The notes: generated by a model from the sequence alone, not told the origin. 64,000 nucleotides of DNA from Candidatus Moraniibacteriota bacterium (GCA_017983435.1 JAGOBM010000003.1:4786-68785); one strand, 5' to 3'; shown: positions 2,486 through 64,000, counted from the stretch's first letter. Translations and numbers: made by a program.

Positions 2486-3790
2486 CTACAGCTTCTCGAG
2501 CATCTCGAAGACCTTTTCGTTGCGGAGACGTCCGCGTGTCGAAGCATAGAGCCGTTCAAGATCGATATTCTTCTCGGCATCCTTGACCCGCTTGTAGTAC
2601 TGAAGCGTGTTATTCATCTCTTCCTCGACTTCCTTCGAATCGATCTCGACCTCATCCTCATCTGCGAGCTTCTCCAGAATGATACCGGCCGAGAGCCGCT
2701 TCTTCGCCTGTTCATTCCAATCCTTCCGAAGATCATCCAAAGACTTCTTGGAATGCTCCAGATACTGCTCAAACGGAATGCCCATCATCTCGACCTGAGA
2801 CTGGAATTCCTGTGTCATACGATTAAGCTCTTCGGCGACCAGGATTTCGGGAAACTCGATAGTCGCCTTGCCGACCAGCGCATCCAAAATCGCAGTCCGT
2901 CCTTCTTCCTTTCCTTTGTGCTTCTTCTCTTCCAGGATGCCTTCCGAAAGCGTCTTCTTGAAATCCTCGAGTGTCTCGAAGGAGCCGAGGCTCTTGGCAA
3001 ATTCGTCATCGATAGCCGGGATCTGGCGCTCCTGCACCAGCCGCAGCTTCACGGCAAACTCAGCCGGCTTACCTGCCAGATGCGTCGCGTGATAATCCTC
3101 CGGAAATGAGAGCGTCATCGTTTTTTCTTCCCCTTCCTGCATACCGACGATCCCTTCCTCAAAGCCCGGGATAAAGACACCCTTACCGAGCACGAGCGGG
3201 TGCTTCTCGCTTTTCCCGCCTTCGATCACGACACCATCCTGCTTGACTTCAAAATCAACTTCTACGCTGTCCTCAAGCTGCGCCGGACGCGCGACAGTCA
3301 CGAACTTCGCCCGCATCGTCGCCAGCCGGTTCAATTCATCCTCGATCTCTTTCGGTTCGACTGCGAGCGCAGTCATCTTCTTGGCGTGAGCCGCGTTGGC
3401 TTCTTTGACAGCTTTCTTCCATTCGGCGAGCTTCACTTCCGGCATCACCGCTGTCGTGATCACATAAGCCAGAGATTCACCCTCCTTGACGGCTTCAAGC
3501 TTCACTTCCGGCTGTCCGATCGCATCGACTTTCTCCTGTTCGAGCGCCCGCGCATACGAATGAGACACCGCGTGCTCAGCAGCCTCCATCAAGAGAGCCT
3601 CTTTTCCATAGCGCTTCTCCAGCACATCGCGAGGCACCTTGCCTGGACGAAACCCGGGGATCTTCACATCTTTGGCCATATGTTCCGCAGCGTGATCCAT
3701 CTCCTTCTTCCATTCATCCCACGCGAGCGTGATAGAGAGCTCCGCCTTCGACTGCGGCAATTTCTTTACGACGATATCCATACTCAGCAA
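2486..3790 (-). CDS. tig: trigger factor
   Basis: 434 aa with a PPIase-type middle domain (GFRPGKVP). Sits directly upstream of clpP, as in many bacteria. Confidence 0.85.
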   Translation of the reverse strand: MLSMDIVVKKLPQSKAELSITLAWDEWKKEMDHAAEHMAKDVKIPGFRPGKVPRDVLEKRYGKEALLMEAAEHAVSHSYARALEQEKVDAIGQPEVKLEAVKEGESLAYVITTAVMPEVKLAEWKKAVKEANAAHAKKMTALAVEPKEIEDELNRLATMRAKFVTVARPAQLEDSVEVDFEVKQDGVVIEGGKSEKHPLVLGKGVFIPGFEEGIVGMQEGEEKTMTLSFPEDYHATHLAGKPAEFAVKLRLVQERQIPAIDDEFAKSLGSFETLEDFKKTLSEGILEEKKHKGKEEGRTAILDALVGKATIEFPEILVAEELNRMTQEFQSQVEMMGIPFEQYLEHSKKSLDDLRKDWNEQAKKRLSAGIILEKLADEDEVEIDSKEVEEEMNNTLQYYKRVKDAEKNIDLERLYASTRGRLRNEKVFEMLEKL

Positions 3791-4396: not shown

Positions 4397-5716
4397 TTAC
4401 TCCGCTTTCGCTTCGGATGCGACTTCCGCGGCCGATTCAACGCCCTCCGCTACCGTCTCTTCCGAGATCTCGATCGGAGCCACTGGCTCAGTATCGCTCA
4501 TCACCGGTTCGGCATCTGCCAAAAGCGTCGCCTCATCTCCAGCTACATCGATCTTCCAGCCCGAAAGCTTGGCGGCCAGACGCACGTTCTGCCCACGCTT
4601 GCCGATAGCGAGCGAAAGCTGATCCTGAGGCACTTTTACGAGCGCGCGCTTCTCTTCTTCGAACAGCTCGACGGAGAGCGCCTTAGCTGGTGACAAAGCT
4701 GCAGTAATGAATTTCTTCGCGTCATCGCTCCATTCGATGATATCGATCTTCTCGCCTCCCAGCTCATCAATGACCGCCTGGACGCGCGTACCCTTCTGAC
4801 CGACACATGAACCGATCGGATCGACTCCTTCTTCGGAAGTCGAGACAGCCAGCTTGGTGCGAGACCCGGCTTCCCGGGCGATCGCCTTGATTTCCACCGT
4901 TCCGGTGAAGATCTCCGGCACTTCGAGCGAGAACAGGTGGCGGACCATCTCCGGATGCGTGCGGGACAAGAGCAGTCCCGGACCGCGGGTATCAGCTTCG
5001 ACACGGACGAGATACACTTTCAGATGCTGACCGATACGATAATTCTCGCCTTCGACCTGTTCGGAAGGAAACAGGACACCGATCGACTTACCCAAATCAA
5101 TGAAGACATTGCGGCCTTCGATGCGCTGGATGATGCCGTTCACGACCTGACCCTCCTTCTCCTTGTATTCTTCATACATCGTCTCGCGCTCCGCCTCACG
5201 GATGCGCTGGATGACGACCTGCTTCGCGGTCTGCGCTGCGACACGGCCGAACTCCTCATGCGCCTCAAGCGGCAGCTCCAGGACATCTCCGACCTGGGCA
5301 TCTTTCTTAATCAGGCGAGCCTCTTCGAGCGTCAGATCGCGCTCGGCGTTGTACCGCGGCAGACGATCTTCATCACCCTCGACATGCTCAGGCTCTTCAT
5401 GCTGCGAAGCCGGCGCGCCCTCTTCGAGGATTTCCTCCTCCACAAATTCGCGAGTCGTCTCATCGACCACTTCCTTCACGAGAAAATACGAAGCTGCCTT
5501 CGAAACCTCATCGAATTTCGATTTGATCACCTGGCCCTTCTTGCCATAATCCTTCTTGTAAGCAGCTGCCAGCGCCGCTTCGACGACTTCCAGGACGCGA
5601 TCCTTCGAAAGCCCCTTCTCATCGGCGATCTGCATGACCGCGCTGCCAAATTCCCCGAGACGTCCCGAAAGACTCTCTCCGGCATCTACCGGTTCTGCGA
5701 CTTTTTTGGTCGGCAT
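4397..5716 (-). CDS. nusA: transcription termination/antitermination factor NusA
   Basis: S1 domain (VNGIIQRIEGRNVFIDLG), KH domains, acidic C-terminal tail; 439 aa. Confidence 0.85.
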   Translation of the reverse strand: MPTKKVAEPVDAGESLSGRLGEFGSAVMQIADEKGLSKDRVLEVVEAALAAAYKKDYGKKGQVIKSKFDEVSKAASYFLVKEVVDETTREFVEEEILEEGAPASQHEEPEHVEGDEDRLPRYNAERDLTLEEARLIKKDAQVGDVLELPLEAHEEFGRVAAQTAKQVVIQRIREAERETMYEEYKEKEGQVVNGIIQRIEGRNVFIDLGKSIGVLFPSEQVEGENYRIGQHLKVYLVRVEADTRGPGLLLSRTHPEMVRHLFSLEVPEIFTGTVEIKAIAREAGSRTKLAVSTSEEGVDPIGSCVGQKGTRVQAVIDELGGEKIDIIEWSDDAKKFITAALSPAKALSVELFEEEKRALVKVPQDQLSLAIGKRGQNVRLAAKLSGWKIDVAGDEATLLADAEPVMSDTEPVAPIEISEETVAEGVESAAEVASEAKAE

Positions 5717-8153: not shown

Positions 8154-9223
8154 GCTCCGGTTTTCGCTTCGTTATAAGCCTTCAGCTGACGATGGAATTC
8201 GACCATGTAGATTTCTGACAACGCCATGAACAGTGCCACGATGATCGGTCCGATGATGAACCCGGAAAGACCGAACAATGAAAGTCCTCCAAGCGTCGCG
8301 AAGAAGACCAGGAGCGGATGCATATCTGTGTCCTTGCCGACCAGTTTCGGACGGAGCACATTGTCAATCGTCGATATGACGCCGGCTCCGACACCGAGGA
8401 TGAATATTCCCTCCCAGACATGTCCCAGAAGCAGCATACTCACGCCCGCCGGGACCCAGACAATGCCCGCTCCGACCATCGGAATAACCGAGAACAGCAC
8501 CATGATCATGCCCCAGATAAGCGGCGACGGCACTCCGGCCACCCAGAACATCAGTCCTCCGAGCACACCCTGTACAATACCCACCAAGAGCGTCCCCTTG
8601 AGGGTCGCGCGGCTGATGGAGACGAATTTGCGCATGAGCAGCTTGTCATGCTCATCACGGAGCGGACTGATACGCATGAGATAGTCGAGCGCGCGGTGAC
8701 CATCGATGAGAAAATAATAAAGCGCGAAGAACATAACGAAGACCCAGAGCAGGAAGCTCGCGATACCCTGATAGGCTGCCTGGAGCAATCCCAGAGCATT
8801 CTTGCCTATCTCGCGGAGATCCGCGGAGAAGGTATCGATATTGACGATATCCGGTCCAAAAGCCGGGCCGATGACCGGTATCTGATTCACCTGCGCTATG
8901 AAAGAGCGGATCGATGATTCGAGAGACTGTCCTGATCCGGCCGCGTGATAGAGGTCATTCGCCTCATTGACCGCAAAACTGAGGGCCGTAAAGATAGGTG
9001 CGATGATGACGACCGCCACGATCAGACAGGTGATGAGAGCGCTCGTCACCTCGCTACCTCGCAGCCACCGGAGCAATCGCTGATAGGTTTTCTGGAAAAG
9101 CACCGCGAGTATAGCCGCCACGACCATCGCCGTAAAAAACGGCAGGAAAAGGAAGATGACTCCGACTCCGACAATCAGGAGCAGCAGGAAAAAGAAAGAG
9201 ATGTTGAAATGACGTAGTTCCAT
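8150..9223 (-). CDS. AI-2E family transporter (PerM/YhhT-like)
   Basis: Eight predicted TM helices; the GIVQGVLGGLMFWVAGVPSPLIWGMIMVLFSVIPMVG region is typical of AI-2E. Confidence 0.8.
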   Translation of the reverse strand: MELRHFNISFFFLLLLIVGVGVIFLFLPFFTAMVVAAILAVLFQKTYQRLLRWLRGSEVTSALITCLIVAVVIIAPIFTALSFAVNEANDLYHAAGSGQSLESSIRSFIAQVNQIPVIGPAFGPDIVNIDTFSADLREIGKNALGLLQAAYQGIASFLLWVFVMFFALYYFLIDGHRALDYLMRISPLRDEHDKLLMRKFVSISRATLKGTLLVGIVQGVLGGLMFWVAGVPSPLIWGMIMVLFSVIPMVGAGIVWVPAGVSMLLLGHVWEGIFILGVGAGVISTIDNVLRPKLVGKDTDMHPLLVFFATLGGLSLFGLSGFIIGPIIVALFMALSEIYMVEFHRQLKAYNEAKTGA

Positions 9224-9309
9224 AGTGATTCCATTATCGCATGAGATACGGAGAGAAACAACTCACTTCTGGGTAACTATCTCAAACCTCACCATGAGGT
9301 TTGAGATAG

Positions 9310-10275
9310 TTACTGATCCAAAAACTCCACGAATGCCTTTTTCTCATGTCGAGGAAAAGAGGCCTTGCCGGAAAGGATCTGTACATTGACGAGTATGACT
9401 CCCCGTCGCATATCTTTCTTAGGCGGTCTTACCGAGACACTGAGACCGAAGCGGCGGAGAAACCAGTCTTTGATACCGCTCCGCGACGATGCATAGCCTT
9501 TCGGCAGGATAAACGGCTGATAGCGGTCGTTCCGTGAAGAGAGATACTCGCGATGCCCCTCATGCAGCACGATATATGTCTTGGCACGCGACCAATCGAC
9601 GGATGAGCTCGCTATTTCTTTCTCGACGCTCTCGCCTACACCCTTCTCCCGTCGATACCGGCAGCGCGCTGCGAGCGGGCAGGCGCCACATTTCGGACGG
9701 CCGGTGCAGAGACTACTTCCGAGATCCATGAGCGCTGCGTTGAGCTCCGGCGCGGCGAGCGTCAGTCGATCTTCCACATCATAGACGTCCGCCACTCTCT
9801 TGCTCCCGAAAAAGAACCGACCGATCACCCGCCGAAGATTTGTATCCCAAGCGATGATCTGCTGTCCATAGGCGAAACTGAGAATAGCAGCGGCCGTATA
9901 GGGACCAATACCCGGAATATTTTCAAGCGCCTTTCTGTCCTGAGGAAATATTCCCTGATACTTCTCCATGATCAAAACCGCCGCCTTGAGCATGTTTCGG
10001 CCGCGCGCGTAATAACCCAAACCCTCGTAGTAAGGCAAGAACTCCTCCCACGTCGCTTGCGCCAATGTCTCCAGAGTCGGGAAGCGCTCAAGAAATCTCG
10101 TATAATAAGCGATGACCCGCGAGACCTGGGTCTGCTGCAGCATGATCTCGGACACCCAGACCTCATACGCCGTAATGTTTTTCTTCCGCCACGGCAGATG
10201 TTCACGACCGGCTTTATGGAAAAAGTCAGCCACGGTCTGTTCAAAAAAATCTACCTTGTCTTTCCGAATCAACAT
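9310..10275 (-). CDS. mutY: A/G-specific adenine DNA glycosylase (HhH-GPD plus 4Fe-4S)
   Basis: LQQTQV and GIGPYTAAAIL HhH-GPD motifs; CxxxxxxCxxCxxxxxC cluster loop. Confidence 0.75.
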   Translation of the reverse strand: MLIRKDKVDFFEQTVADFFHKAGREHLPWRKKNITAYEVWVSEIMLQQTQVSRVIAYYTRFLERFPTLETLAQATWEEFLPYYEGLGYYARGRNMLKAAVLIMEKYQGIFPQDRKALENIPGIGPYTAAAILSFAYGQQIIAWDTNLRRVIGRFFFGSKRVADVYDVEDRLTLAAPELNAALMDLGSSLCTGRPKCGACPLAARCRYRREKGVGESVEKEIASSSVDWSRAKTYIVLHEGHREYLSSRNDRYQPFILPKGYASSRSGIKDWFLRRFGLSVSVRPPKKDMRRGVILVNVQILSGKASFPRHEKKAFVEFLDQ

Positions 10276-19596: not shown

Positions 19597-19616
19597 TCAG
19601 ACCCCGTTTCTCGCAA

Positions 19617-19650
19617 CGAAAAAACACCCGGGAAACCGGGTGTTTTTTCG
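19617..19650. terminator. bidirectional rho-independent terminator (ACACCCGG-GAAA-CCGGGTGT flanked by A/T runs)
   Basis: Lies between the convergent RND permease and pilT. Confidence 0.6.
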
Positions 19651-19661
19651 TCTCTTTATGC

Positions 19662-21783: not shown

Positions 21784-21941
21784 AAATTTGGAGCTTCTTT
21801 TTCTTGTCTGATATGCTCAGAGAAGCAAGGAGAAGAAAGATTGCTTTCGGCATTCCCTTGTCTTCCTGTGGATTCTCAGGCATCCAACGGTCGCCAATGA
21901 AACGACCGAAAGCAATCTTTCTCACCAAAAAACAAAATCCT

Positions 21942-22319
21942 ATGCTCATACACATATTCGGCAATCCCGATCTTCCCTGCGACGCGCTCCCCGTCCTGCT
22001 TTTGCCGCGCCTGGCGGAAGCCTTGCCGCAGTACACCTTCCGTTTCACTGATCCCAACGAGCTCGACCTTCCCCGAGAAGGCGAGGACTTCATCGCCATC
22101 GATACGGTCGACGGCCTCAAATCGATACGGGAGATAGGTATCGAGGAGATCGCAGCGCTCAAAGCCAGAGCGACGACCCATGATTTCGATCTTTCATCTT
22201 TCCTCTTGCTCGCGAAGAAACTCCGCCCGGGCATCAGTATCCGTATCATCGGCGTCCCGATGCAGAGCGAAGCGGATACGGCCTTCGCGACCCTAGTCCC
22301 GATTCTCGAAACCCTCTAA
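21942..22319 (+). CDS. hydrogenase maturation endopeptidase (HycI/HybD-like)
   Basis: About 126 aa; N-terminal FGNPDL, AIDTVD and THDFDL positions parallel HycI Glu/Asp/His. Convergent with the hydrogenase genes. Alternative start at 21897. Confidence 0.55.
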   Translation: MLIHIFGNPDLPCDALPVLLLPRLAEALPQYTFRFTDPNELDLPREGEDFIAIDTVDGLKSIREIGIEEIAALKARATTHDFDLSSFLLLAKKLRPGISIRIIGVPMQSEADTAFATLVPILETL

Positions 22320-23727: not shown

Positions 23728-24231
23728 TTAATCCTTTGTTGGAGCCTCCACGACACCGAACTCAACCAGCGCGTCATTCAGAACCTTGATAAACGCTTCC
23801 TCGGACATCGGACAGCCATTCACTGTGGCATCCACGGTCACCAGCTCATCCAGCTTCTTGGCTTTCTTCCCATAATGGAATTTTTCCAGAAGAAAATGAA
23901 TCTCTTCCTGCACTTCCGGAGGAAACTCGTTGCGCTGAGTCGAAAAATTGCCAGCGACAGCGCAAGACCCGATCGCCACGAGCTTCGTAGCGAGCCCGCG
24001 GATCTCAAGCAGCTTTTCTTCCTGCTCCGGCGAAGCGATCGCCCCCTCGACAAAGGCGACGTCCATCTGATCGATCACGTTCTTCGATTTGAAAACCTTG
24101 GCATAGCGGATATCGAGGAGCGGCAGCCATTCCTGATAATGATCATTCAGATACTCCGCAAACATGACGGTACTATCCTCGCAGCAGGAGAACGAGAACC
24201 ATCCGATACGCAGTTTTTTTCCGGTAGGCAT
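23728..24231 (-). CDS. [NiFe]-hydrogenase small subunit, NuoB-like, single proximal cluster
   Basis: 167 aa with Cys at FSCCED, GSCAVAG and NGCPM, a NuoB/group-4-like 4-Cys pattern; 14 bp upstream of the large subunit. Confidence 0.7.
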   Translation of the reverse strand: MPTGKKLRIGWFSFSCCEDSTVMFAEYLNDHYQEWLPLLDIRYAKVFKSKNVIDQMDVAFVEGAIASPEQEEKLLEIRGLATKLVAIGSCAVAGNFSTQRNEFPPEVQEEIHFLLEKFHYGKKAKKLDELVTVDATVNGCPMSEEAFIKVLNDALVEFGVVEAPTKD

Positions 24232-24314
24232 ACAGGTTCGACGATTAAGCGACTTGATTACGCTTACATTCTACCACTTCTCTTCGGAGCTCACCATAAA
24301 AATACTTAAGAAAA

Positions 24315-24402
24315 GCTCCTGGGCTACGAAAGCAGATTTTTCCCTTGCTATCGCCTCGGAAGTCTCGGGCATCAGGAAAAATCTCTTTCGCAGCCCAGGA
24401 GC
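24315..24402. repeat. long-hairpin repeat, copy 1 (about 29-bp stem; conserved core loop)
   Basis: Arms GCTCCTGGGCTACGAAAGCAGATTTTTCC and GGAAAAATCTCTTTCGCAGCCCAGGAGC enclose the core CTTGCTATCGCCTCGGAAGTCTCGGGCATCA. Confidence 0.6.
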
Positions 24403-24432
24403 ATTCGCTTCAACCGGACCAATACATCCCTA

Positions 24433-24858
24433 TCAGTCATCGCATTTCACGCAGAGACACCCTTCTTTCGTCAGTATCCCTTCAAAATAATCCTTGCCAT
24501 AGTTATAGGTCAGCTCTTCACCAGCCTTGATCTGCCGACGGGACACGATGAATATGCGCCCGCGACGATTGATCGCCTCGCAGTTCGGCCGGCAGGAATG
24601 GTTGATATAGCGGGCCGTGTTCCAGCGCGGACTCCCATCGATATCGACACGCGTGCTGACATTGAAGACATAGCGATTATTGAGCGTATCGCCATGGCTC
24701 GAATGCAGACGATGGCCCACATATTCGATGATGGTCTCCCCCTTTTTGATCGCCTCGAAGGCATAGAGCCCGAGACCGGCGCTCGACCGCTTCACTCGGA
24801 CATCGAATTTTGATTTCGTCGCTTCCATACATTTAAAAAATATCACAGATAAGCACAA
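24433..24858 (-). CDS. SET-domain protein (putative protein-lysine methyltransferase)
   Basis: NHSCRPNC and ELTYNYG motifs plus a post-SET Cys cluster CLCVKC; 141 aa. Confidence 0.8.
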   Translation of the reverse strand: MCLSVIFFKCMEATKSKFDVRVKRSSAGLGLYAFEAIKKGETIIEYVGHRLHSSHGDTLNNRYVFNVSTRVDIDGSPRWNTARYINHSCRPNCEAINRRGRIFIVSRRQIKAGEELTYNYGKDYFEGILTKEGCLCVKCDD

Positions 24859-24951
24859 TCACCGGGTGCGGAAGAGGTTTTTCCTGATGCCCGAGATTTC
24901 CGAAGCGATAGCAAGGGAAAAATCTCTTCCGCACCCGGTGATCCCCAATAG
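24859..24951. repeat. long-hairpin repeat, copy 2 (inverted relative to copy 1)
   Basis: Arms CACCGGGTGCGGAAGAGGTTTTTCC and GGAAAAATCTCTTCCGCACCCGGTG; loop is the reverse complement of the copy-1 core, about 90% identical. Confidence 0.6.
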
Positions 24952-52543: not shown

Positions 52544-52657
52544 ACGTTATCCGCTATTCACTCTGACACACTGATTTTAGCTGCTATCACAAAATGACGC
52601 AAAGGATTTCAGAGGAGTAAACCAGCTTATCGTAGGTTTTCACTTTCATGCAGCGTA

Positions 52658-52708
52658 GCAACAAAAAACAAGGCTTCCGCCAGCTGGCGGATATGGCCTT
52701 GTTTTTAA
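52658..52708. repeat. copy B of the GCAACAAAAAACAAGGCTT terminator-type repeat, with the CCGCCAGCTGGCGGATATG insert in its loop
   Basis: 19-nt identity with the tRNA-Asn-proximal terminator at 57894. Confidence 0.5.
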
Positions 52709-53187: not shown

Positions 53188-53198
53188 GTATTTTTTGA

Positions 53199-53250
53199 GC
53201 AACAAAAAACAAGGCTTCCGCCAGCTGGCGGATATAGCCTCGTTTTCTCA
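53199..53250. repeat. copy C of the same terminator-type repeat, with the palindrome insert
   Basis: GCAACAAAAAACAAGGCTT-CCGCCAGCTGGCGGATATA-GCCTCGTTTT. Confidence 0.5.
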
Positions 53251-53999: not shown

Positions 54000-54091
54000 A
54001 TCGATCGAACACCGAATCCCTTGCGTTAGTTACAAGTATCGGGTCTGGGCTTCCATCTCAATCTTATCACACGTTCTAACCCTCACTTTGA

Positions 54092-54157
54092 GCAACAAAA
54101 AACAAGGCTTCATTAGGCCTCGTTTTCTTAGCTCGCCTGGCGGGACAACTTCCGAAC
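54092..54157. repeat. copy D of the terminator-type repeat followed by a degenerate tRNA-Asn 3'-end-like segment
   Basis: GCAACAAAAAACAAGGCTT-CATTAG-GCCTCGTTTTCTT then AGCTCGCCTGGCGGGACAACTTCCGAAC, about 65% matched to GGCTCCGACGGCTGGATTCGAACC. Confidence 0.45.
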
Positions 54158-57810: not shown

Positions 57811-57893
57811 GGCAATCTCCCAAATATTTGAATGTGCTACCCCGACCGTATCATGCATAACCGAAATGGTCAACGGTTCGAATCCCGTTTTAG

Positions 57894-57930
57894 GTAACAA
57901 AAAACAAGGCTTTTGCAAGCCTCGTTTTGT
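57894..57930. terminator. bidirectional terminator AACAAAAAACAAGGCTT-TTGCA-AGCCTCGTTTTGTT, immediately 3' of tRNA-Asn
   Basis: Stem CAAGGCTT/AAGCCTCG with A-run and T-run flanks; master copy of repeats B, C and D. Confidence 0.6.
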
Positions 57931-58005
57931 TGGCTCCGACGGCTGGATTCGAACCAGCGACCAAGTGGTTAACAGCCACCTGCTCTACCACTGAGCTACG
58001 TCGGA
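57931..58005 (-). tRNA. tRNA-Asn (anticodon GUU), CCA encoded
   Basis: Hand-folded cloverleaf: acceptor UCCGACG/CGUCGGA, D-arm GCUC-AGUGGUA-GAGC, anticodon arm GGUGG-CUGUUAA-CCACU, T-arm GCUGG-UUCGAAU-CCAGC, discriminator G, CCA. Confidence 0.85.
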
Positions 58006-58129
58006 AGGTAAATTATTGCCCTTTACGGCAACGGTCCTATGGTATCGAAAAGGGAAGAAAAAGGCAAGCCTCAGCCAGAACAAAAGAAATCCCCGACTCT
58101 CGATGAGAGCGGGGATGGTACGGCTATGA

Positions 58130-58390
58130 TCAGCCGAAAGCAGCTGCGAAGCCGCTCGGTGATGCTGGGAGAAACCCCATATCGGCCATGAGCGCGAGGG
58201 TCTTCTCGGCTTCTCCGATATTGAGCTTCTGGAGCGCGTAGCCGACATGGACGATGACATAATCGCCGACCGCGATATCTTCGACGAGCGCGAGCGAGAT
58301 CTGTTTCTTGACCCCGCTGATATCGACCGTCGCCATATCGGATCCGTCGTTGGCCAGCGCGACAACTTCCGCTGGGATACTGAGACACAT
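58130..58390 (-). CDS. hypC: hydrogenase maturation factor HypC/HupF
   Basis: N-terminal MCLSIP signature, 86 aa. Confidence 0.8.
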   Translation of the reverse strand: MCLSIPAEVVALANDGSDMATVDISGVKKQISLALVEDIAVGDYVIVHVGYALQKLNIGEAEKTLALMADMGFLPASPSGFAAAFG

Positions 58391-58435
58391 AATGGACTCC
58401 TTTCGTAAAAAGAACTTGGGTGTTGAGCCCTGGCA

Positions 58436-59062
58436 TTATACCAGGCCGGAGGCGATTTGGAGAGACGGCATCGGCTTCTCGAAATGCTGATAATCTTTGA
58501 AGTCTGACCAATGCCCTCCCCAGACGAAGCCACGATCGAGAAAGAGCCGGACGATAGGGGCGCCGTCGATGACCGTCCCGTACACGGTGGGATCGTAGCG
58601 CGACCCGAGCGGGGCGACATAGTTGCCGCTCCGGATGCACGGGTTGTGCCACGGATTGATATCGATAGCCAGCCCGTAGCCATGCCAGGAAATACGGTCG
58701 GTCCCGTCTATCAGACGATAGTTGAAACCGGTCGTATTGTTGTCATGCATCGACCGGTCATCGTCCCAGCCATACCGCGGGTCAGCCAGAGGGATCATCT
58801 TCGCGATGGGAAAATCGATAGCTAGGAGCGCGAGAAATATCTCCTCGACCTCCCGGGCAATCATCTCATGCACGACGATCTGACCGATGTGGCACCGCCC
58901 ATCGAATGAGTGATACGGAACCTCTATCAGTCGCTGCGCTGCCAGGATGATTTTTGGACACGGCGGTATGGCTGGTTTGTGGCTTGTAGAAGAACTATGG
59001 CGAGTCATGACACTTTCCTCCTCATAGGTGATTCGCGCATACAAAGTAGCATATGGCGCCAT
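58436..59062 (-). CDS. M15-family metallopeptidase (VanY-like D-Ala-D-Ala carboxypeptidase)
   Basis: SWHGYGLAIDIN (SxHxxGxAxD) motif. The true start may be the internal MTRHSSS. Confidence 0.7.
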   Translation of the reverse strand: MAPYATLYARITYEEESVMTRHSSSTSHKPAIPPCPKIILAAQRLIEVPYHSFDGRCHIGQIVVHEMIAREVEEIFLALLAIDFPIAKMIPLADPRYGWDDDRSMHDNNTTGFNYRLIDGTDRISWHGYGLAIDINPWHNPCIRSGNYVAPLGSRYDPTVYGTVIDGAPIVRLFLDRGFVWGGHWSDFKDYQHFEKPMPSLQIASGLV

Positions 59063-59121
59063 AAAAGCAAAATCGGCGCCGGAATAGCGCCGATAATGCG
59101 AGAGAAAACCAGGTAAATTCC

Positions 59122-60546
59122 TTAGTAGTCCTTGAGCTTCTTCAGGTGATCGTGTTCACGGATCTTCTCGAGGGCCTTGGCCTCGATCTGGCGGATACGC
59201 TCACGGGTCACGCCGAATTCCTGGCCGACTTCCTCGAGCGTATGGGTCACGCCGTCCTCGAGTCCGAAGCGGATGCGGAGTATCTTCTGCTCACGCGGTG
59301 TCAGCTCATTCAGGATATCCGTGATGTGCTGCTTCAAGAGCTTGCGGGAAGCCGACTGGTTCGGCATCACCGTCTCGGTATCCTCGATGAAATCTCCGAG
59401 TACCGAGTCATCCTCGCTATCACCGACGCTGGTCTCGAGCGAGACGGTCTCCTGTGAGATCTTCTGGATATGGCGGATCTTGTCGACTTCGATATTCATT
59501 TCCGCGGCGATCTCCTCAGCGAGCGGCTCACGGCCGAGCTCCTGCACCAGCCGGCGGGTCACCTGGGCATACTTGTTGATCGTCTCCACCATGTGCACCG
59601 GGATACGGATAGTCCGCGACTGGTCAGCCAGCGCACGGGTAATCGCCTGACGAATCCACCAGGTAGCATAGGTCGAGAACTTGAAGCCTTTCTGATAATC
59701 GAATTTCTCCACGGCGCGGAACAGACCGATATTCCCCTCCTGGATGAGATCGAGGAGTGACAGATTGTGCGAGCGGCCGACATACTTCTTGGCGATCGAC
59801 ACCACGAGCCGAAGATTGGCCTCTGTGAGGCGCTGTTTGGCATTGAGATCGCCCTTCTCAATCGCCTTGGCGAGCTTGACCTCCTCTTCACCGTTCAGGA
59901 GCGGCACCCGGCCGATTTCCTTGAGATACATCTGGACCAAGTCGGCGGACACTTCATCCTCGCCCATGTCGATCAGACGCTCCTTGGCTTTGGCAGCTTC
60001 CTTGGCGCTCTTGTCATGACCATACTTCTCGCCTTCTTTGACAGTCTCGATCTTGAGCATCTCCTCCGATCCGACGATACGGATACCGCCGGTCTCGAGC
60101 TTCTCATAGAGCGCTTCGAGACCTTCGAGATCCTGCTCGACATCCGGCAGGATATGAATGATCTCATCTTCCGTCACGAAGCCGCGCTGCTTGCCGCGAG
60201 CCAGGAGCTCATCGACCGCGTTCTTCTGAGCGGCTGCTCGATTTTCCTGCTTGGCGATCGCTTTCTTCGAAATCGGCTTGACGACCTTCTTCGGTGCTGG
60301 CTTGGCAGCCTTTTTCGGAGCGACTTTCTTCGGCTTGGCAGCTGGCTTCACCACTTTCTTGACCGGCTTCTTCGCTACTTTCTTCGGTGCTGGCTTGGCA
60401 GCTTTCTTGTGAGCGACCGGCTTCTTCGCCGGCTTGTGCTTCACGGCCGGCTTGACCGCTTTCTTGGCGGCTTTTTTGACAGCCTTGTGCACGACCTTTT
60501 TGACCGGCTTGTTTACTTTCTTCGCCGCGACTTTCTTCTGTGCCAT
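59122..60546 (-). CDS. rpoD: primary sigma factor RpoD with an approximately 105-aa Lys/Ala/Pro-rich basic N-terminal extension
   Basis: Regions 2-4 conserved ([53 protein letters not shown]). The N-terminus consists of [10 protein letters not shown]-type repeats. Confidence 0.9.
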
Positions 60547-60700
60547 ACCGTTGTTTGCTTACGACATTATTTTACAAAAAAATACGGACCGACTGCCGGC
60601 CGCCTCAATACTCATGAGTGGGGAGCATACCAAAGATTGATAAAAATTGAAAGTCTGTCCCCTCAGAGACCAATGAGGTTTTTCCTGCTGCCTGACTTTT

Positions 60701-60781
60701 CCAGAAAGATACAATAGACTTTTCCCTCGCTATCGCCTCGGAAGTCTCGGGCAGCGGAAAAAATCCATTGTATCTTTCTGG
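60701..60781. repeat. long-hairpin repeat, copy 3 (same conserved core, different covarying stem), plus a partial inverted copy at about 60675-60700
   Basis: Arms CCAGAAAGATACAATAGACTTTTCCC and GGAAAAAATCCATTGTATCTTTCTGG enclose the core TCGCTATCGCCTCGGAAGTCTCGGGCAGC. Confidence 0.6.
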
Positions 60782-60792
60782 AATCTAATCCG

Positions 60793-62610
60793 TTACCGAT
60801 TCTCCCGCGAGAGGAGCATGAACCGCGAGAGGAGCTCCTTCTCCTGGTCTTTCTCCCCTGACTTCCGGGCAGCCTCGATGGCATGCTCGAGCGCGATGAG
60901 CTCTTCGCTCCGGATGACTTCTTTCTTGATATCCCGGGTCAGCTGATCAAAAATCGCGATCGCTGCGGCTGCGCGCTCCTCCTCGGGAACCGCGGAAAAA
61001 TCCGGACCGTCGAGGATACGGAACAGGAGCTTCCCCGCGAGCGACTTAAGCTCTTTGTCCTCGACCAAATCGATCGGATCGCTGTCATCGCCCGCCTGGA
61101 CGATGAAGAAATACAGCGGATGCTTCTCGAGATAGCGGAGAACCGTCTCGTCATCGAGCTCGATACCGCGCGTACGCACCGCACCAAACGCGAGCATGAG
61201 ACTGATCATCTCTTCCCGCAGGCGCTCGCTCCGCTTGGTATAGAGCGTCGTCGTTTCTTTGAAAGGATCTTTCCCGTCGGATGGGAGATTCTGCGTCCGC
61301 TTCTCCCGCTCGACACGGGCACTATGTACTACACCGTGGAGATGCTTTTCTTCCACCCGGATCGCCTGGGCGAGCTCCTTGATCCAGTACGACCGGTCGA
61401 TCTCATTTTTCGCCGCCCCGATAAACGGTACGAATTGCGCGAGCACTTCTTTCTTCCCGGCCGGTGTCTCGATATCGTGCCGACTCACGAGCTGCGCGAG
61501 GAAATATTGGAGCGCCGGCTCCGGATGAGCGATCGCATCACGGAGCGCATCCGGATGTTCACGGGCCAGATCGGCCGCATCCTTGCCCTCCGGAATCGAG
61601 ATGATGAGCGCTTCGATATCCTGTCCGAGCGCGAGCTCCGTGCTCCGGCGGGCCGCTTTCTGCCCCGCCTCATCCATATCAAAGAAGAACCGGATTTCCT
61701 TGCCATAGCGCCGCAGGAGCGCGAGCTGCTCTTCGCCGAGCGCCGTCCCCGAGGCCGCGACCGCGTTCTCGATACCCGCCTGATGACACGCGATGACATC
61801 CATATTCCCCTCGACCAGCACCGTGTAGCCCTCCTGTTTGATCGCCTGCCGGGCATACGAAAGTCCGTAGAGCACCTGGCTCTTTTTGTAGATCGGTGTC
61901 TCCGATGTATTGATATATTTCGCCTGGGTCTCATCCGCTCCCGGCCGGACACGGGCCGAATACCCGATCACTCGCCCGATCGTATCGGTGATCGGAAACA
62001 TGATCCGATCCCGGAACCGGTCATAGTATCCGTCGCCATTCTCCTTCTTGAGCGCGATACCCGCCTGGGCGAGCTCGCGGGCATCGAATCCCGACTTCAC
62101 GAGGAAATCATACAGATGGCGCCACCCCTCCGGAGCGAATCCGAGACGGAATTTCCGGATACTCTCATCCGACAAACCCCGATCACGCAGATAGCTGAGC
62201 GCGAGCTCCTTGCCCGGCCCCTCCCAGAGCTGCTTCTCATAGAACTTCGTCGCAAGCTCGTGGATCTCATAGAGCCGAGACTTCTCGTCGCGGGCTTCCT
62301 GATAGCGCTCTTTGGATTCCTGACTGTACTGCGGCAGCTCGACATTGGCCCGCTCAGCCAGCATGATGAGTGCCTCGCGGAAGCCGATACCCTCCATTTC
62401 CATGACGAAGGCAAAGGCATCGCCACCCTTGTTGCAGCCGAAACAGTGCCACATCTGGCGCTCTTCATTCACCATAAAAGACGGCGAGCGCTCGCGATGA
62501 AACGGACAGCACGCCTTCCAGTGGCTGCCTGATTTGTCGAGCTTCACATAGCCGGCGACTACGTCGACGATATTGAGCCGAGCCTTGATTTCTTCGGTAG
62601 GAGAAAGCAT
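60793..62610 (-). CDS. dnaG: DNA primase
   Basis: Zinc ribbon CCPFHRERSPSF...HCFGC and TOPRIM EGNMDVI. Start set at MLSPTEEIKARL. Confidence 0.85.
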   Translation of the reverse strand: MLSPTEEIKARLNIVDVVAGYVKLDKSGSHWKACCPFHRERSPSFMVNEERQMWHCFGCNKGGDAFAFVMEMEGIGFREALIMLAERANVELPQYSQESKERYQEARDEKSRLYEIHELATKFYEKQLWEGPGKELALSYLRDRGLSDESIRKFRLGFAPEGWRHLYDFLVKSGFDARELAQAGIALKKENGDGYYDRFRDRIMFPITDTIGRVIGYSARVRPGADETQAKYINTSETPIYKKSQVLYGLSYARQAIKQEGYTVLVEGNMDVIACHQAGIENAVAASGTALGEEQLALLRRYGKEIRFFFDMDEAGQKAARRSTELALGQDIEALIISIPEGKDAADLAREHPDALRDAIAHPEPALQYFLAQLVSRHDIETPAGKKEVLAQFVPFIGAAKNEIDRSYWIKELAQAIRVEEKHLHGVVHSARVEREKRTQNLPSDGKDPFKETTTLYTKRSERLREEMISLMLAFGAVRTRGIELDDETVLRYLEKHPLYFFIVQAGDDSDPIDLVEDKELKSLAGKLLFRILDGPDFSAVPEEERAAAAIAIFDQLTRDIKKEVIRSEELIALEHAIEAARKSGEKDQEKELLSRFMLLSRENR

Positions 62611-62805
62611 ATATTTCGTCTTTCGACGGTAGCACACAATCGCGTATCCGTCATTACTCAAAACCGAGAGGGGAAACCGCGTCATCGCTTAGCTTCAAAG
62701 GAGTTTTTCCGATGCCGTGTTCCGACGCCAAGCAAGGAAAAAATTCTTTGAAGCTAAACGATTCCTGGACAAAACAAAAACCGCCTCGCGGCGGCTCTGA
62801 TCAGT

Positions 62806-63627
62806 CTATTGTTTGGCGGCTGCCGGTGCCGCGCTATTACCGATGACTACCAGGATATCTGTGCCTTCCGGCACCGTCTCTCCGGCCGGCAATGAGCCGA
62901 CCGTCCCGCCGATCGCCATGGCGACTTCGCTTGCCTTGATCGCTGCCCGACCGGTCACATCGGCGATGATAGTGCCGACATAGTCGCTCTTCGAGGCTTT
63001 TTCCTTGGCCGTCACCGTTACGCCATCAGGATAGGCAGCCACGAGCCTATCTTCCGCAGCCTGCGTCACCCCTATCTTGGTCGACCCGTTGAGAAAGACC
63101 ACTTTGGCCGGCTCAGCCACGGCGGCTGTCTCTACCGGTGTCTCCGCTGGAGTCTCTTCGGTCACCGGCACTGCTTCCGGAGCGACCGGCGTCTCCGAAG
63201 GAGCAGCACTCTCCGGCGTTTCCGATGGTGTCGTTTCGTTTTGGATATTGATTGTCGTTACATCGACGATCTTGCCGCTCGATGGACGATAGAGTACCGC
63301 TCGGCCGGATTCGGTATAGATGAGGATCTTGTCCCCATTCTCCGCGTTCTTGAAAAACGCCTGCTCAGAGAGCTTCTCCTTGTCAGCCACCGTGGCCAAA
63401 GTCGGCGTCTCACCCGCTGGGAGCTCCATCAGCCGCTCGACTTGCCCAAGCACCTCCGCGAGCTCATTCTGCTGCGACCCCTTCTCGGAGAGCGCCGTCC
63501 GATACTGCGTATAGAAGAACACCGCCGCGCCAAGAGACAAGAGAGAAATAACCCCCGCCACCCCCATGAATACTGTATGGGTGCGACCAAAAGATCCGCC
63601 TGCTACTGTTTCTTCAGAAGACGCCAT
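62806..63627 (-). CDS. membrane-anchored protein with a C-terminal LytR_C-like domain
   Basis: N-terminal TM, Pro/Thr/Glu-rich linker, and C-terminal VVFLNGSTKIGVTQAAEDRL, typical of LytR_C. Confidence 0.5.
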   Translation of the reverse strand: MASSEETVAGGSFGRTHTVFMGVAGVISLLSLGAAVFFYTQYRTALSEKGSQQNELAEVLGQVERLMELPAGETPTLATVADKEKLSEQAFFKNAENGDKILIYTESGRAVLYRPSSGKIVDVTTINIQNETTPSETPESAAPSETPVAPEAVPVTEETPAETPVETAAVAEPAKVVFLNGSTKIGVTQAAEDRLVAAYPDGVTVTAKEKASKSDYVGTIIADVTGRAAIKASEVAMAIGGTVGSLPAGETVPEGTDILVVIGNSAAPAAAKQ

Positions 63628-63683
63628 AGGATAACAACATTAGAGATATACCAGCAGTATACCAGATTCTTTGGGACCGAGGC

Positions 63684-64000
63684 TTATGACCCGTCACGCT
63701 CGATATCGATATCGCTCGTCATCTCGATGATTTTGCCCGTCGATGGCCGATAGAGATAGGCTCTTGATGCATGCGGGTAGATAAGGATCTTGTCGCCCTG
63801 CTCCGCTTTTTGGAAAAACGCCTGTCCATCGAGCTTCTCGCGATTCGTCACCGTCGCGAGCGTCGGTCGCTCACCGCGAGGCAGCATCACTCGCTCTCCG
63901 ATGACGGTCACCCAGCGGGTCACCTCTCGCCGCTGCTGCGCTTCAGGAGAGAAGAATGACTGGTACGCGAAATACGCCGCGAGACCGAGCGCGACGACGA
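63684..64000 (-). CDS. truncated paralogue of the N-terminal region of 62806-63627 (partial; 5' end beyond the window)
   Basis: Frame stays open past 63923 to the window edge and encodes a TM helix (VVALGLAAYFAY). The LPRGERPTLATV...GDKILIY...LYRPSTGKI segment parallels the downstream gene. Confidence 0.4.
   Translation of the reverse strand, partial: VVALGLAAYFAYQSFFSPEAQQRREVTRWVTVIGERVMLPRGERPTLATVTNREKLDGQAFFQKAEQGDKILIYPHASRAYLYRPSTGKIIEMTSDIDIERDGS

Follow-up and report, generated by a model that had tools for sequence, protein, structure and literature searches.

The spacer between the primase gene dnaG and the primary sigma factor gene rpoD in a stretch of 64,000 nt from a Candidatus Moraniibacteriota bacterium (GCA_017983435.1 JAGOBM010000003.1:4786-68785; hereafter the window) contains an 85-nt hairpin, c3 (60699-60783, - strand), that belongs to a repeat family restricted to a narrow clade of Candidatus Moranbacteria, the group of the candidate phyla radiation (CPR, or Patescibacteria) in which its DnaG homologues place this organism. 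Our analysis indicates that c3 is probably a passenger in this spacer, a member of a lineage-restricted interspersed hairpin repeat that is propagated or converted by way of a folded single strand. From the features described below we infer mobility through a single-stranded intermediate, a factor that recognizes the hairpin and the lack of a host function. The family resembles repetitive extragenic palindromic (REP) elements and miniature inverted-repeat transposable elements (MITEs) in behaviour but is built differently, since a constant tip on a stem that is free in sequence and yet paired, with one preferred strand, is the reverse of the REP and MITE design; this arrangement suggests that a putative new factor recognizes the element as a folded single strand. 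CPR genomes of about 1 Mb are usually described as streamlined and repeat-poor. The 64 kb of the one CPR genome studied here hold five copies and a fragment, which turn over between strains with 98% identical DnaG proteins; if this were true genome-wide, the elements would be usable as strain markers and would be a likely cause of assembly breaks and false open reading frame (ORF) calls.

Copies and anatomy of the hairpin family

All genes around c3 lie on the - strand, and the identity of its neighbours as dnaG (60793-62685) and rpoD (59122-60546), which the original prediction had named, was confirmed. The hairpin starts 9 nt 3' of the dnaG stop codon in a spacer of 246 nt. Its arms (60699-60726 and 60756-60783) are 28 nt each, 89% complementary and separated by 29 nt, and the 26-bp stem proposed earlier is real but has three non-Watson-Crick positions, two of which are G.U pairs on the - strand. 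The 25-nt core GCTATCGCCTCGGAAGTCTCGGGCA, the basis of the conserved-core hairpin that is confirmed at this site, occurs exactly at 60729-60753 and at 24347-24371, and with two mismatches at 24888-24912 (-), compared to a chance expectation of 0 matches. It forms the center of a conserved apical module (60720-60762, - strand) consisting of a T-run/CC, the core and a GG/A-run, with an apical tetraloop at 60739-60742 that reads CGGA on the + strand and UCCG on the - strand. RNA folding of the two strands yielded -37.9 and -47.9 kcal/mol (z = -7.2 and -9.3 relative to shuffled sequences), and a covariance model of the family scored c3 at 86.7 bits on the - strand compared to 33 bits on the + strand. 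We use the term AS strand for the one on which GAUGCC comes first in the family; in c3 this strand reads GCTGCC...TCCG...GCGAGG and is the gene-sense strand. The partial copy that had been reported next to c3 in inverted orientation was likewise verified, as 60675-60711 is 78% identical to 24874-24910. It is a truncated element (GAGGTTTTTCCTGCTGCCTGA, 60675-60695, + strand) that consists of inner stem, T5CC and the initial 9 nt of the core, and it lies 3 nt from c3 in the opposite orientation, forming a convergent doublet with it. Exact matches to TTTTTCCTGNTGCC are found only at elements (c1 and c2, described below, and 60679-60692), and with one mismatch allowed a fourth match appears at 9180-9193, giving a total of 4 compared to 0.13 expected.

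Although c3 had been counted as the third copy, the window contains four strong copies (c1 to c4) and one diverged copy (c5), in addition to the fragment; c4 and c5 had been missed. With wider boundaries, c3 extends over 60695-60785 and c4 over 62681-62767. Copies c1 and c2, both with a type A core, flank a SET-domain gene. The first (24312-24403, - strand, 87.3 bits) is located 30 nt after the SET stop codon at the tip of an intrinsic-terminator hairpin, whose outer stem GCTCCTG/CAGGAGC is followed by TTTTCTT, and the second (24856-24946, + strand, 93.7 bits) lies about 30 nt ahead of the SET start codon and has its AS strand antisense to the genes. Copy c4 (62684-62762, + strand, core type B, 79.4 bits) was revealed by a search for the frame TTTTYCC-N15-45-GGRAAAA, which is present at 4 loci compared to 0.02 expected. 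It lies immediately upstream of dnaG, with its AS strand on the + strand and thus antisense to dnaG, between this gene and the intrinsic terminator of the upstream gene (62777-62798), and is thereby located just after a terminator, in contrast to c1, which is within one. Copy c5 (21834-21922, - strand), found by a hairpin scan between a RluB-like gene and a hydrogenase maturation protease gene, has a 17-bp stem and a core reading GGATGCC...CAAGGG, and with a weak model score of 16.7 bits (E = 0.06) is considered a diverged or decaying, probable member.

By combining the hairpin scan with the covariance model, 21 good copies were gathered from about five sources, i.e. this genome and a few close relatives. 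On the AS strand these elements, with a length of 75-95 nt (about 90 nt), read in order a basal stem of 15-22 bp, U5CC, (U)GA-UGC-C, an apical stem of 4-6 bp capped by the loop UCCG (or UCUG, in one of the core types), 1-3 nt, GCA-AG-G(G), A5 and the return arm of the basal stem. The tip is nearly constant and the paired base variable: the sequence of the basal stem differs in every copy but is always paired, and pairwise identity is 0.95 in the core vs 0.44 in the basal stem for type B, and 0.87 vs 0.47 for type A. Four core types were distinguished, mainly by differences in the apical stem that are compensatory (GUGU/ACAC, UAUGUU/AACAUA, UACGUU/AACGUA), and compensatory differences also occur within type A (ACU/AGG vs AUU/AAG). 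Common to many type A copies are also one bulged G, located in the 3' arm, and a G.U pair beside the U5/A5 tract.

The earlier suggestion that stems differ and still covary is borne out by strong covariation over the 21 copies. In a plain MAFFT alignment 84% of the cells pair, compared to 66% after shuffling and 44-62% when the partners are slid against each other. The model-fitted alignment, which is biased towards the structure it was fitted to, gave 92.6% compared to 68% and 42-53%, respectively, with changes on both sides in 28 of 35 pairs, amounting to 192 cells; these are counts of cells and not of independent events. Since pairing is maintained in the apical stem while the sequence changes, recognition of the element as a duplex DNA site appears unlikely. 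The possibility that stems are newly made from the target at each insertion was rejected as a general rule, because outer stems are weakly homologous across loci (those of c1 and of the copies in L044, L028 and L009 share GCGAAAGAGATTTT...), even though the outermost 7 bp at c1 belong to the host terminator. A promoter within the core was also discarded, as the spacing of the TTGCT-GGCATC boxes varies with core type (17 vs 13 nt) and a consensus scan found nothing. By inspection, the hairpins do not fit a hammerhead, nor a K-turn, for which the internal loop is unsuitable and the GA/AG register wrong. A search of the whole window against Rfam at the gathering threshold returned one tRNA only, and permissive searches of the c1/c2 and c3 regions returned generic long-hairpin matches (MIR7504, 34.7 vs 83 bits; STnc400, 22 vs 80).

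The narrow distribution of the family emerged from database searches and from orthologous contigs of relatives, whose DnaG identities to the window are given in parentheses: L007 (98%), L001 (87%), L002/L003 (84%), L004/L005 (82%) and L006 (79%). Among 185,579 species genomes, true matches to the exact core pattern were confined to a single metagenome-assembled genome, CAZOKB01, with 8 loci, and the JGI metagenome collection contributed two true contigs; all other matches in both collections are free of hairpins and occur in the number expected by chance. In the available sequence, about 7 kb for L002 and about 16 kb for each of L004 and L006, the covariance model found no copy, and the same holds for contigs L050-L054. 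A phage origin was dismissed, the sole match on a viral contig being a chance match without a hairpin. CAZOKB01 is labelled 'uncultured Bdellovibrionales', but its locus L012 is collinear with window positions 57933-63839 at 73-75% DNA identity and contains hairpins of the family described here, so that either this label is probably incorrect or the bin is mixed.

Strand asymmetry and the folded form

The two strands of the hairpin are not equivalent. On the AS strand the 21 copies score 49-94 bits with the covariance model, compared to 18-39 bits on the other strand. When each stem mismatch was assigned to the strand in which it could pair as a G.U wobble, the ratio of AS to the other strand was 39:11 for all copies and 34:11 (p = 8e-4) after removal of orthologous duplicates; by copy, 13 lean to the AS strand and 3 to the opposite one (p = 0.02), and for the outer stem alone the ratio was 17:7 (p = 0.06). 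The AS strand is also the one with the more stable fold in 17 of 21 copies under RNA parameters and in each of the 10 copies tested under DNA parameters. A mutational bias is an unlikely cause, because the asymmetry tracks the orientation of the element and neither transcription nor the (uniform) gene strand. Together, the maintained apical pairing and the wobble asymmetry indicate that a folded strand of defined polarity matters, with both RNA and single-stranded DNA (ssDNA) compatible with the data. A CsrA-type GGA loop on the other strand was considered and set aside, as core type C is devoid of GGA, the wobble asymmetry favours the opposite strand and the position relative to start codons is inconsistent outside the window.

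All copies are intergenic, most of them 5-75 nt after a stop codon, beside genes that are unrelated to each other (SET, hydrogenase subunits, dnaG, rpoD, mreB, murA-like, dnaB, recR, alaS, rplU, gdh). Such a location, together with their very high stability and an apical stem that covaries under a UCCG loop of the UNCG type, would be expected of a cis-acting RNA element of the host, a protein-binding or exonuclease-blocking hairpin in the 3' untranslated region (UTR), here at the 3' end of dnaG, that serves as mRNA stabilizer, processing site or read-through barrier. However, orientation relative to transcription is random, with about 9 copies co-oriented and about 7 anti-oriented with their flanking genes, and the wobble bias points the same way in co-oriented (20:3) as in anti-oriented (10:3) copies and hence follows the element and not the gene. 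Although this is the main rival to a passenger role, we regard it as unlikely overall, also in view of the strain comparisons given below.

Known systems built on folded single strands or variable stems were compared as well. Like the attC sites of integrons, the hairpins depend on structure over sequence and have one favoured folded strand marked by extrahelical or bulged bases. In attC sites, however, the conserved boxes (R''/R', GTTRRRY) form the base and the tip varies, and the sites follow cassettes in one orientation beside an integrase; here, the tip is constant, the bases differ in every copy, either orientation occurs and no integrase domain was found in the window. A second resemblance is to the stem-loop arrays of TIGR-Tas systems, in which the stems of tigRNAs diverge within one array, with few conserved stem nucleotides beside the motifs, and in which a CPR clade of TasR has an extended hairpin in the loop (PMC12045711; bioRxiv 10.64898/2026.09.09.750476). 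Variable palindromic stems, loop-adjacent conservation, a hairpin in the loop and occurrence in Patescibacteria are features common to both, and the architecture shared with published stem-loop tigRNAs, along with the one strand favoured here, could suggest that the hairpins are units of a related RNA-guided system. We consider this extremely improbable, since TIGR units are arranged in tandem beside a tas (Nop-domain) gene and contain two variable spacers, whereas the copies in the window are dispersed at 21.8, 24.3, 24.9, 60.7 and 62.7 kb beside unrelated genes, the loop segments flanking the apical hairpin, i.e. the would-be spacers, do not vary within a type and hardly vary between types, and no Nop-domain protein was found among the ORFs of the window or the scanned ORFs of L014 and of L032, which is from a related metagenome-assembled genome.

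Turnover and inversion between strains

The dnaG-rpoD spacer itself is subject to turnover. In L002, L004 and L006 (79-84% DnaG identity) the element is missing at both sites flanking dnaG. Between the window and L007 the dnaG end and the promoter region are 98-100% identical and the hairpins very different: the L007 copy differs from c3 by roughly 35%, with both arms and about 7 of 34 core positions affected, and the window contains an extra 34 nt with the truncated copy that is missing in L007. This pattern looks like replacement or conversion rather than ordinary divergence, although the history of the locus as read from the alignment is ambiguous. The absence of c3 in relatives and its replacement in L007 mark the element as dispensable and unstable at this locus, and argue against a dedicated role in sigma-factor expression, as well as against a host cis-acting function. 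An origin of the L007 outer arm as an inverted duplicate of the native flank was considered and dropped, because MAFFT aligns c3 directly with the L007 copy.

A similar picture was obtained at the SET locus, where the gene is in place but c1 and c2 are both missing in L050, whose adjacent hydrogenase subunit is 93% identical, and in L052-L054 (82%). This likewise disfavours a host function and led us to reject SET as the cargo of a composite c1-c2 element. The empty c1 site of L050 is a plain intrinsic terminator, GCTTCTGAA-AAG-TTCAGGAGC followed by T8, and the window has the same outer stem GCTCCTG...CAGGAGC, then TTTTCTT, around about 75 nt of element. At c1 the direction of change, either insertion or deletion, was deduced from the lack of the family in more remote relatives. 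Preservation of the terminator U tract at c1, on the other hand, counts in favour of a host cis-acting element.

The fourth copy provides a different kind of change. Orthologues of c4 are present in the window, L007, L001 and L012, and in the latter two the core and inner stem are inverted, with the outermost stem and flanks unchanged; alignment of the window c4 with that of L001 scored 47 with the inner segment flipped, compared to 5 in direct orientation and 26 with the whole hairpin flipped. The inversion is best explained as the signature of a crossover between the arms with breakpoints inside them. A flip of this kind at an orthologous site speaks against a host cis-acting element, but the core at this site is conserved (1 of 25 positions differs) despite diverged stems (about 8 of 28), which could speak for a host function. 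In-place inversion could also point to a DNA recombination site or invertible switch, whose tip is bound by a recombinase and whose flipping toggles a property of the neighbouring gene, and it is compatible with this idea that SET and dnaG are flanked by copies as inverted pairs and that convergent doublets occur in L032 (1224-1314/1364-1454 and 7435-7525/7539-7627) and, as a third case, at c3 with its truncated copy. We judge this explanation improbable. Inverted arms and one inversion are observed, but the invertible segment measures only about 30-60 bp, there is no consensus promoter in the core and no invertase or recombinase gene among the ORFs of the window; moreover, SET is native in relatives without elements, so that the flanking pairs are not cassette ends, and an apical stem that varies and still pairs fits a folded single strand and not a sequence-specific duplex site. 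Loops of long hairpins are known to flip passively, as in the small inversions of plastid genomes.

With respect to their behaviour, the hairpins come closest to two groups of known repeats. REPs measure 20-40 nt, have a conserved stem and are tagged at one end by GTAG or CGTC (PMC3733652). Similar to REPs and REPINs, which are mobilized by RAYT (Y1 HUH) transposases whose genes they typically flank, the elements are extragenic palindromes at the 3' ends of genes in both orientations, often as inverted doublets, without target-site duplications, putatively recognized as a folded single strand and variable between strains. They are unlike them in their length of 75-95 nt, their unconserved stem and the restriction of the constant part to the tip; a terminal GTAG/CGTC tag is absent, as the hairpin ends differ in every copy (GCTCCTG, ATCACCG, TTCCAGA, AATCGTT...), and no match to PF01797, the RAYT-type Y1 HUH domain, was detected among about 65 ORFs of the window and 10 ORFs of L032 and L014. 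Among bacterial stem-loop repeats, of which 92 families have been surveyed (PMC2267715), MITEs and related repeats such as Correia, ERIC/IRU, RUP and QMITE2, the last of which shows inversion between strains (PMC5896051), share with the present family a non-coding, hairpin-forming nature, intergenic or 3' UTR positions, multiple copies, a restriction to certain lineages and differences in presence or absence between strains. In contrast, MITE copies are alike over their full length, end in conserved terminal inverted repeats and are flanked at the insertion site by direct repeats, whereas no shared terminal inverted repeats were found here (outer-stem identity 0.39-0.47 vs 0.81-0.95 in the core).

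These observations can be accommodated by a mechanism in which the family propagates, or is replaced, among intergenic sites as folded ssDNA or RNA of one strand. A trans-acting factor would read the constant tip, the recurrent G.U pair beside the U5/A5 tract and the recurrent 1-nt bulge, or, alternatively, spread would occur by template switching between hairpins. Target sites would lie mostly just after stop codons, the tip of a terminator hairpin being the one resolved case, and recombination between the long arms would flip the core in place. Under this mechanism c3 would be a recent and dispensable passenger between the dnaG stop codon and the rpoD promoter. A more specific and doubtful version holds that the hairpins are substrates of an undescribed one-strand, hairpin-recognizing system of CPR bacteria or that their tips spread without a transposase. 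In the first case, a recombinase or transposase, or else an RNA-binding effector, would read GAUGCC, the UCCG loop and GCAAGG, as well as the G.U pair beside the U5/A5 tract and the bulged G, and ignore the stem sequence; in the second, template switching and fold-back synthesis would allow tips to colonize terminator hairpins and to flip in place.

Several points weigh against propagation of the family as a mobile repeat. No target-site duplication was found, the longest direct repeat across the hairpin boundaries averaging 2.8 nt compared to 2.5 nt at random; the script used for this comparison is imperfect where folds reached the ends of the extracts, and inspection by eye agrees with its outcome. 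Among the approximately 65 ORFs of the 64-kb window there is no transposase, integrase, reverse transcriptase or Nop-domain gene. It is from turnover alone that we infer mobility, and c4 has been kept at one site in four sources (87-98% DnaG identity), which could equally reflect a host function. A simple copy-and-decay transposon does not leave behind stems that are unrelated and yet carry nearly the same core; near-identical tips on unrelated stems require either fast birth and death with selection at the level of the element, conversion of tips, or selection by the host. Furthermore, the wobble asymmetry is strongest beside the core, where positions are semi-conserved and not independent, and the 21 copies come from about five sources and were aligned in a way that leans towards the fitted structure.

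The predicted rpoD promoter and the neighbourhood of the copies

In gene sense, the dnaG-rpoD spacer consists of the dnaG stop codon (60795-60793), 9 nt, c3, 3 nt, the truncated copy, the segment ATTGGTCTCTGAGGGGACAG, the block ACTTTCAATTTTTATCAATCTTTGGTATGCT (60654-60624), a leader hairpin with T7 (60601-60575) and the rpoD ATG at 60546. Comparison of six orthologous loci identified ACTTTCAATTTTTATCAATCTTTGGTATGCT (60624-60654, - strand) as a conserved promoter-like block, with a predicted extended -10 element TGGTATGCT (TGnTATGCT; TG at 60632-60631, hexamer TATGCT at 60629-60624) that is recognizable in 6 of 6 loci including the three without a repeat element; in the latter, L002, L004 and L006, only 10-17 nt and no hairpin element separate the dnaG stop codon from the block. 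Any promoter common to the window and these relatives therefore lies downstream of c3, as does a second candidate -10 just after the leader hairpin and its T7. The terminator-like leader hairpin (60575-60601, - strand) is outside the repeat family and conserved in L001 and L007, and neither the predicted promoter nor the leader hairpin of the spacer depends on the repeat. After the hairpin and T7 the leader shows a TAAAAT/TATAAT-like box, and this arrangement could correspond to a leader attenuator of the primary sigma factor or to two alternative promoters.

With the promoter predicted from conservation and consensus, a position of c3 in the rpoD leader, as originally envisaged, is not supported. 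Nor does c3 qualify as a canonical dnaG terminator: in gene sense it is followed by AAAGUCAGG and not by a U tract, and a terminator scan did not report it. The original prediction itself had named a promoter downstream of the element, together with lack of transcription, as evidence to the contrary; the former part agrees with the sequence, and transcription of c3 as a 3' extension of dnaG is possible. A structured element of the rpoD leader, or a dnaG terminator, that tunes primary sigma factor expression thus appears very improbable. It would account for the position of c3 in this spacer, and on a read-through transcript a structure as stable as -48 kcal/mol could slow RNA polymerase or RNases down, but relatives do without the element and the same family occurs beside unrelated genes (SET, hydrogenase, mreB, dnaB, alaS, murA-like). 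The missing U tract also speaks against a host cis-acting element at the dnaG 3' end. As a passenger, c3 would at most form a very stable 3' hairpin on dnaG transcripts or an obstacle to read-through, and may in this way have an indirect effect on read-through from dnaG to rpoD.

Intrinsic terminators as a class share with the family the site after stop codons, and c1 was built on a terminator stem, from which it alone has inherited a U tract. They differ from c3 and most copies, which have no U tract and combine AT-rich stems of 25-30 bp with a structured tip of 30 nt, and ordinary terminators exist separately in the same spacers, for instance at 62777-62798. Long, near-perfect hairpins of the terminator type without the repeat core are found at 9270-9316, 1618-1656 and 19613-19654, with a 22-bp stem and 3-nt loop or with stems of 16-19 bp including A and T tracts, and represent the kind of tip that c1 occupies.

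The hairpins also affect gene calls. They create or lengthen ORFs at 21804-22319, 24164-24490 and 62611-62685 of the window as well as in L009 (2-247) and L028 (1258-1512), and they cause an apparent N-terminal addition of 46 codons to the hydrogenase protease and the 630-aa call for dnaG. These long, probably spurious ORFs and the probably over-extended 5' end of dnaG, with which the c4 hairpin overlaps, are a source of annotation errors. The dnaG product has the primase zinc ribbon, catalytic core, Toprim and DnaB-binding domains, and since its homologues have about 605 aa, translation likely starts at the ATG at 62610 (60793-62610). Upstream of SET (24826-24857) and dnaG (62608-62648), on the - strand, TTGTG-N17-TAAATG/AAATAT is followed by ATG one nucleotide on, which suggests that both transcripts are leaderless; the dnaG arrangement is conserved in L001, L002 and L007. 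RpoD contains sigma-70 regions 1.1 to 4 and a Lys/Ala/Pro-rich, repeated N-terminus, in which AKKPVKK-like repeats are encoded at 60277-60538 and appear in the DNA as four direct repeats of 55 nt. The RpoD proteins of relatives (472-501 aa) share this histone-H1-like extension.

A Pfam scan of the window ORFs revealed housekeeping and type IV pilus genes, an ECF sigma factor, a Fic protein and the SET protein. The only transposase seen belongs to the IS110 family (PF02371) and is encoded in L032 (3294-4598, - strand); a link to the repeat family was rejected, because no sequence link exists (3 8-mers common with the cores compared to 9.9 expected from shuffled sequence) and the insertion sequence is not inserted in a hairpin. 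On both sides this gene is flanked by similar structured non-coding stretches of about 300 nt (2890-3200 and 4790-5080), which could be bridge-RNA regions or a tandem partial copy.

Further repeats were observed in the window. Two adjacent paralogous genes without a Pfam match are located upstream of dnaG (62806-63627 and 63684-63923) and share a repeat (63317-63414/63778-63875); at their position L002, L004 and L006 have a gene of 266-304 aa that likewise has no Pfam match. A second repeat family, AGCAACAAAAAACAAGGCTTC...GCCTYGTTTT, resembles bidirectional terminators and occurs at 52657-52705, 53198-53246, 54087-54145 and 57889-57947. Its last copy abuts the 3' end of a tRNA gene (57934-58005, - strand), and similar tails at 53237 and 54117 could be att-like remnants. 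Finally, a direct repeat of 99 nt with 81% identity (39346-39444/40649-40747) connects the 3' end of a LigB-like gene with the 3' region of a PDGLE/CbiM cluster.

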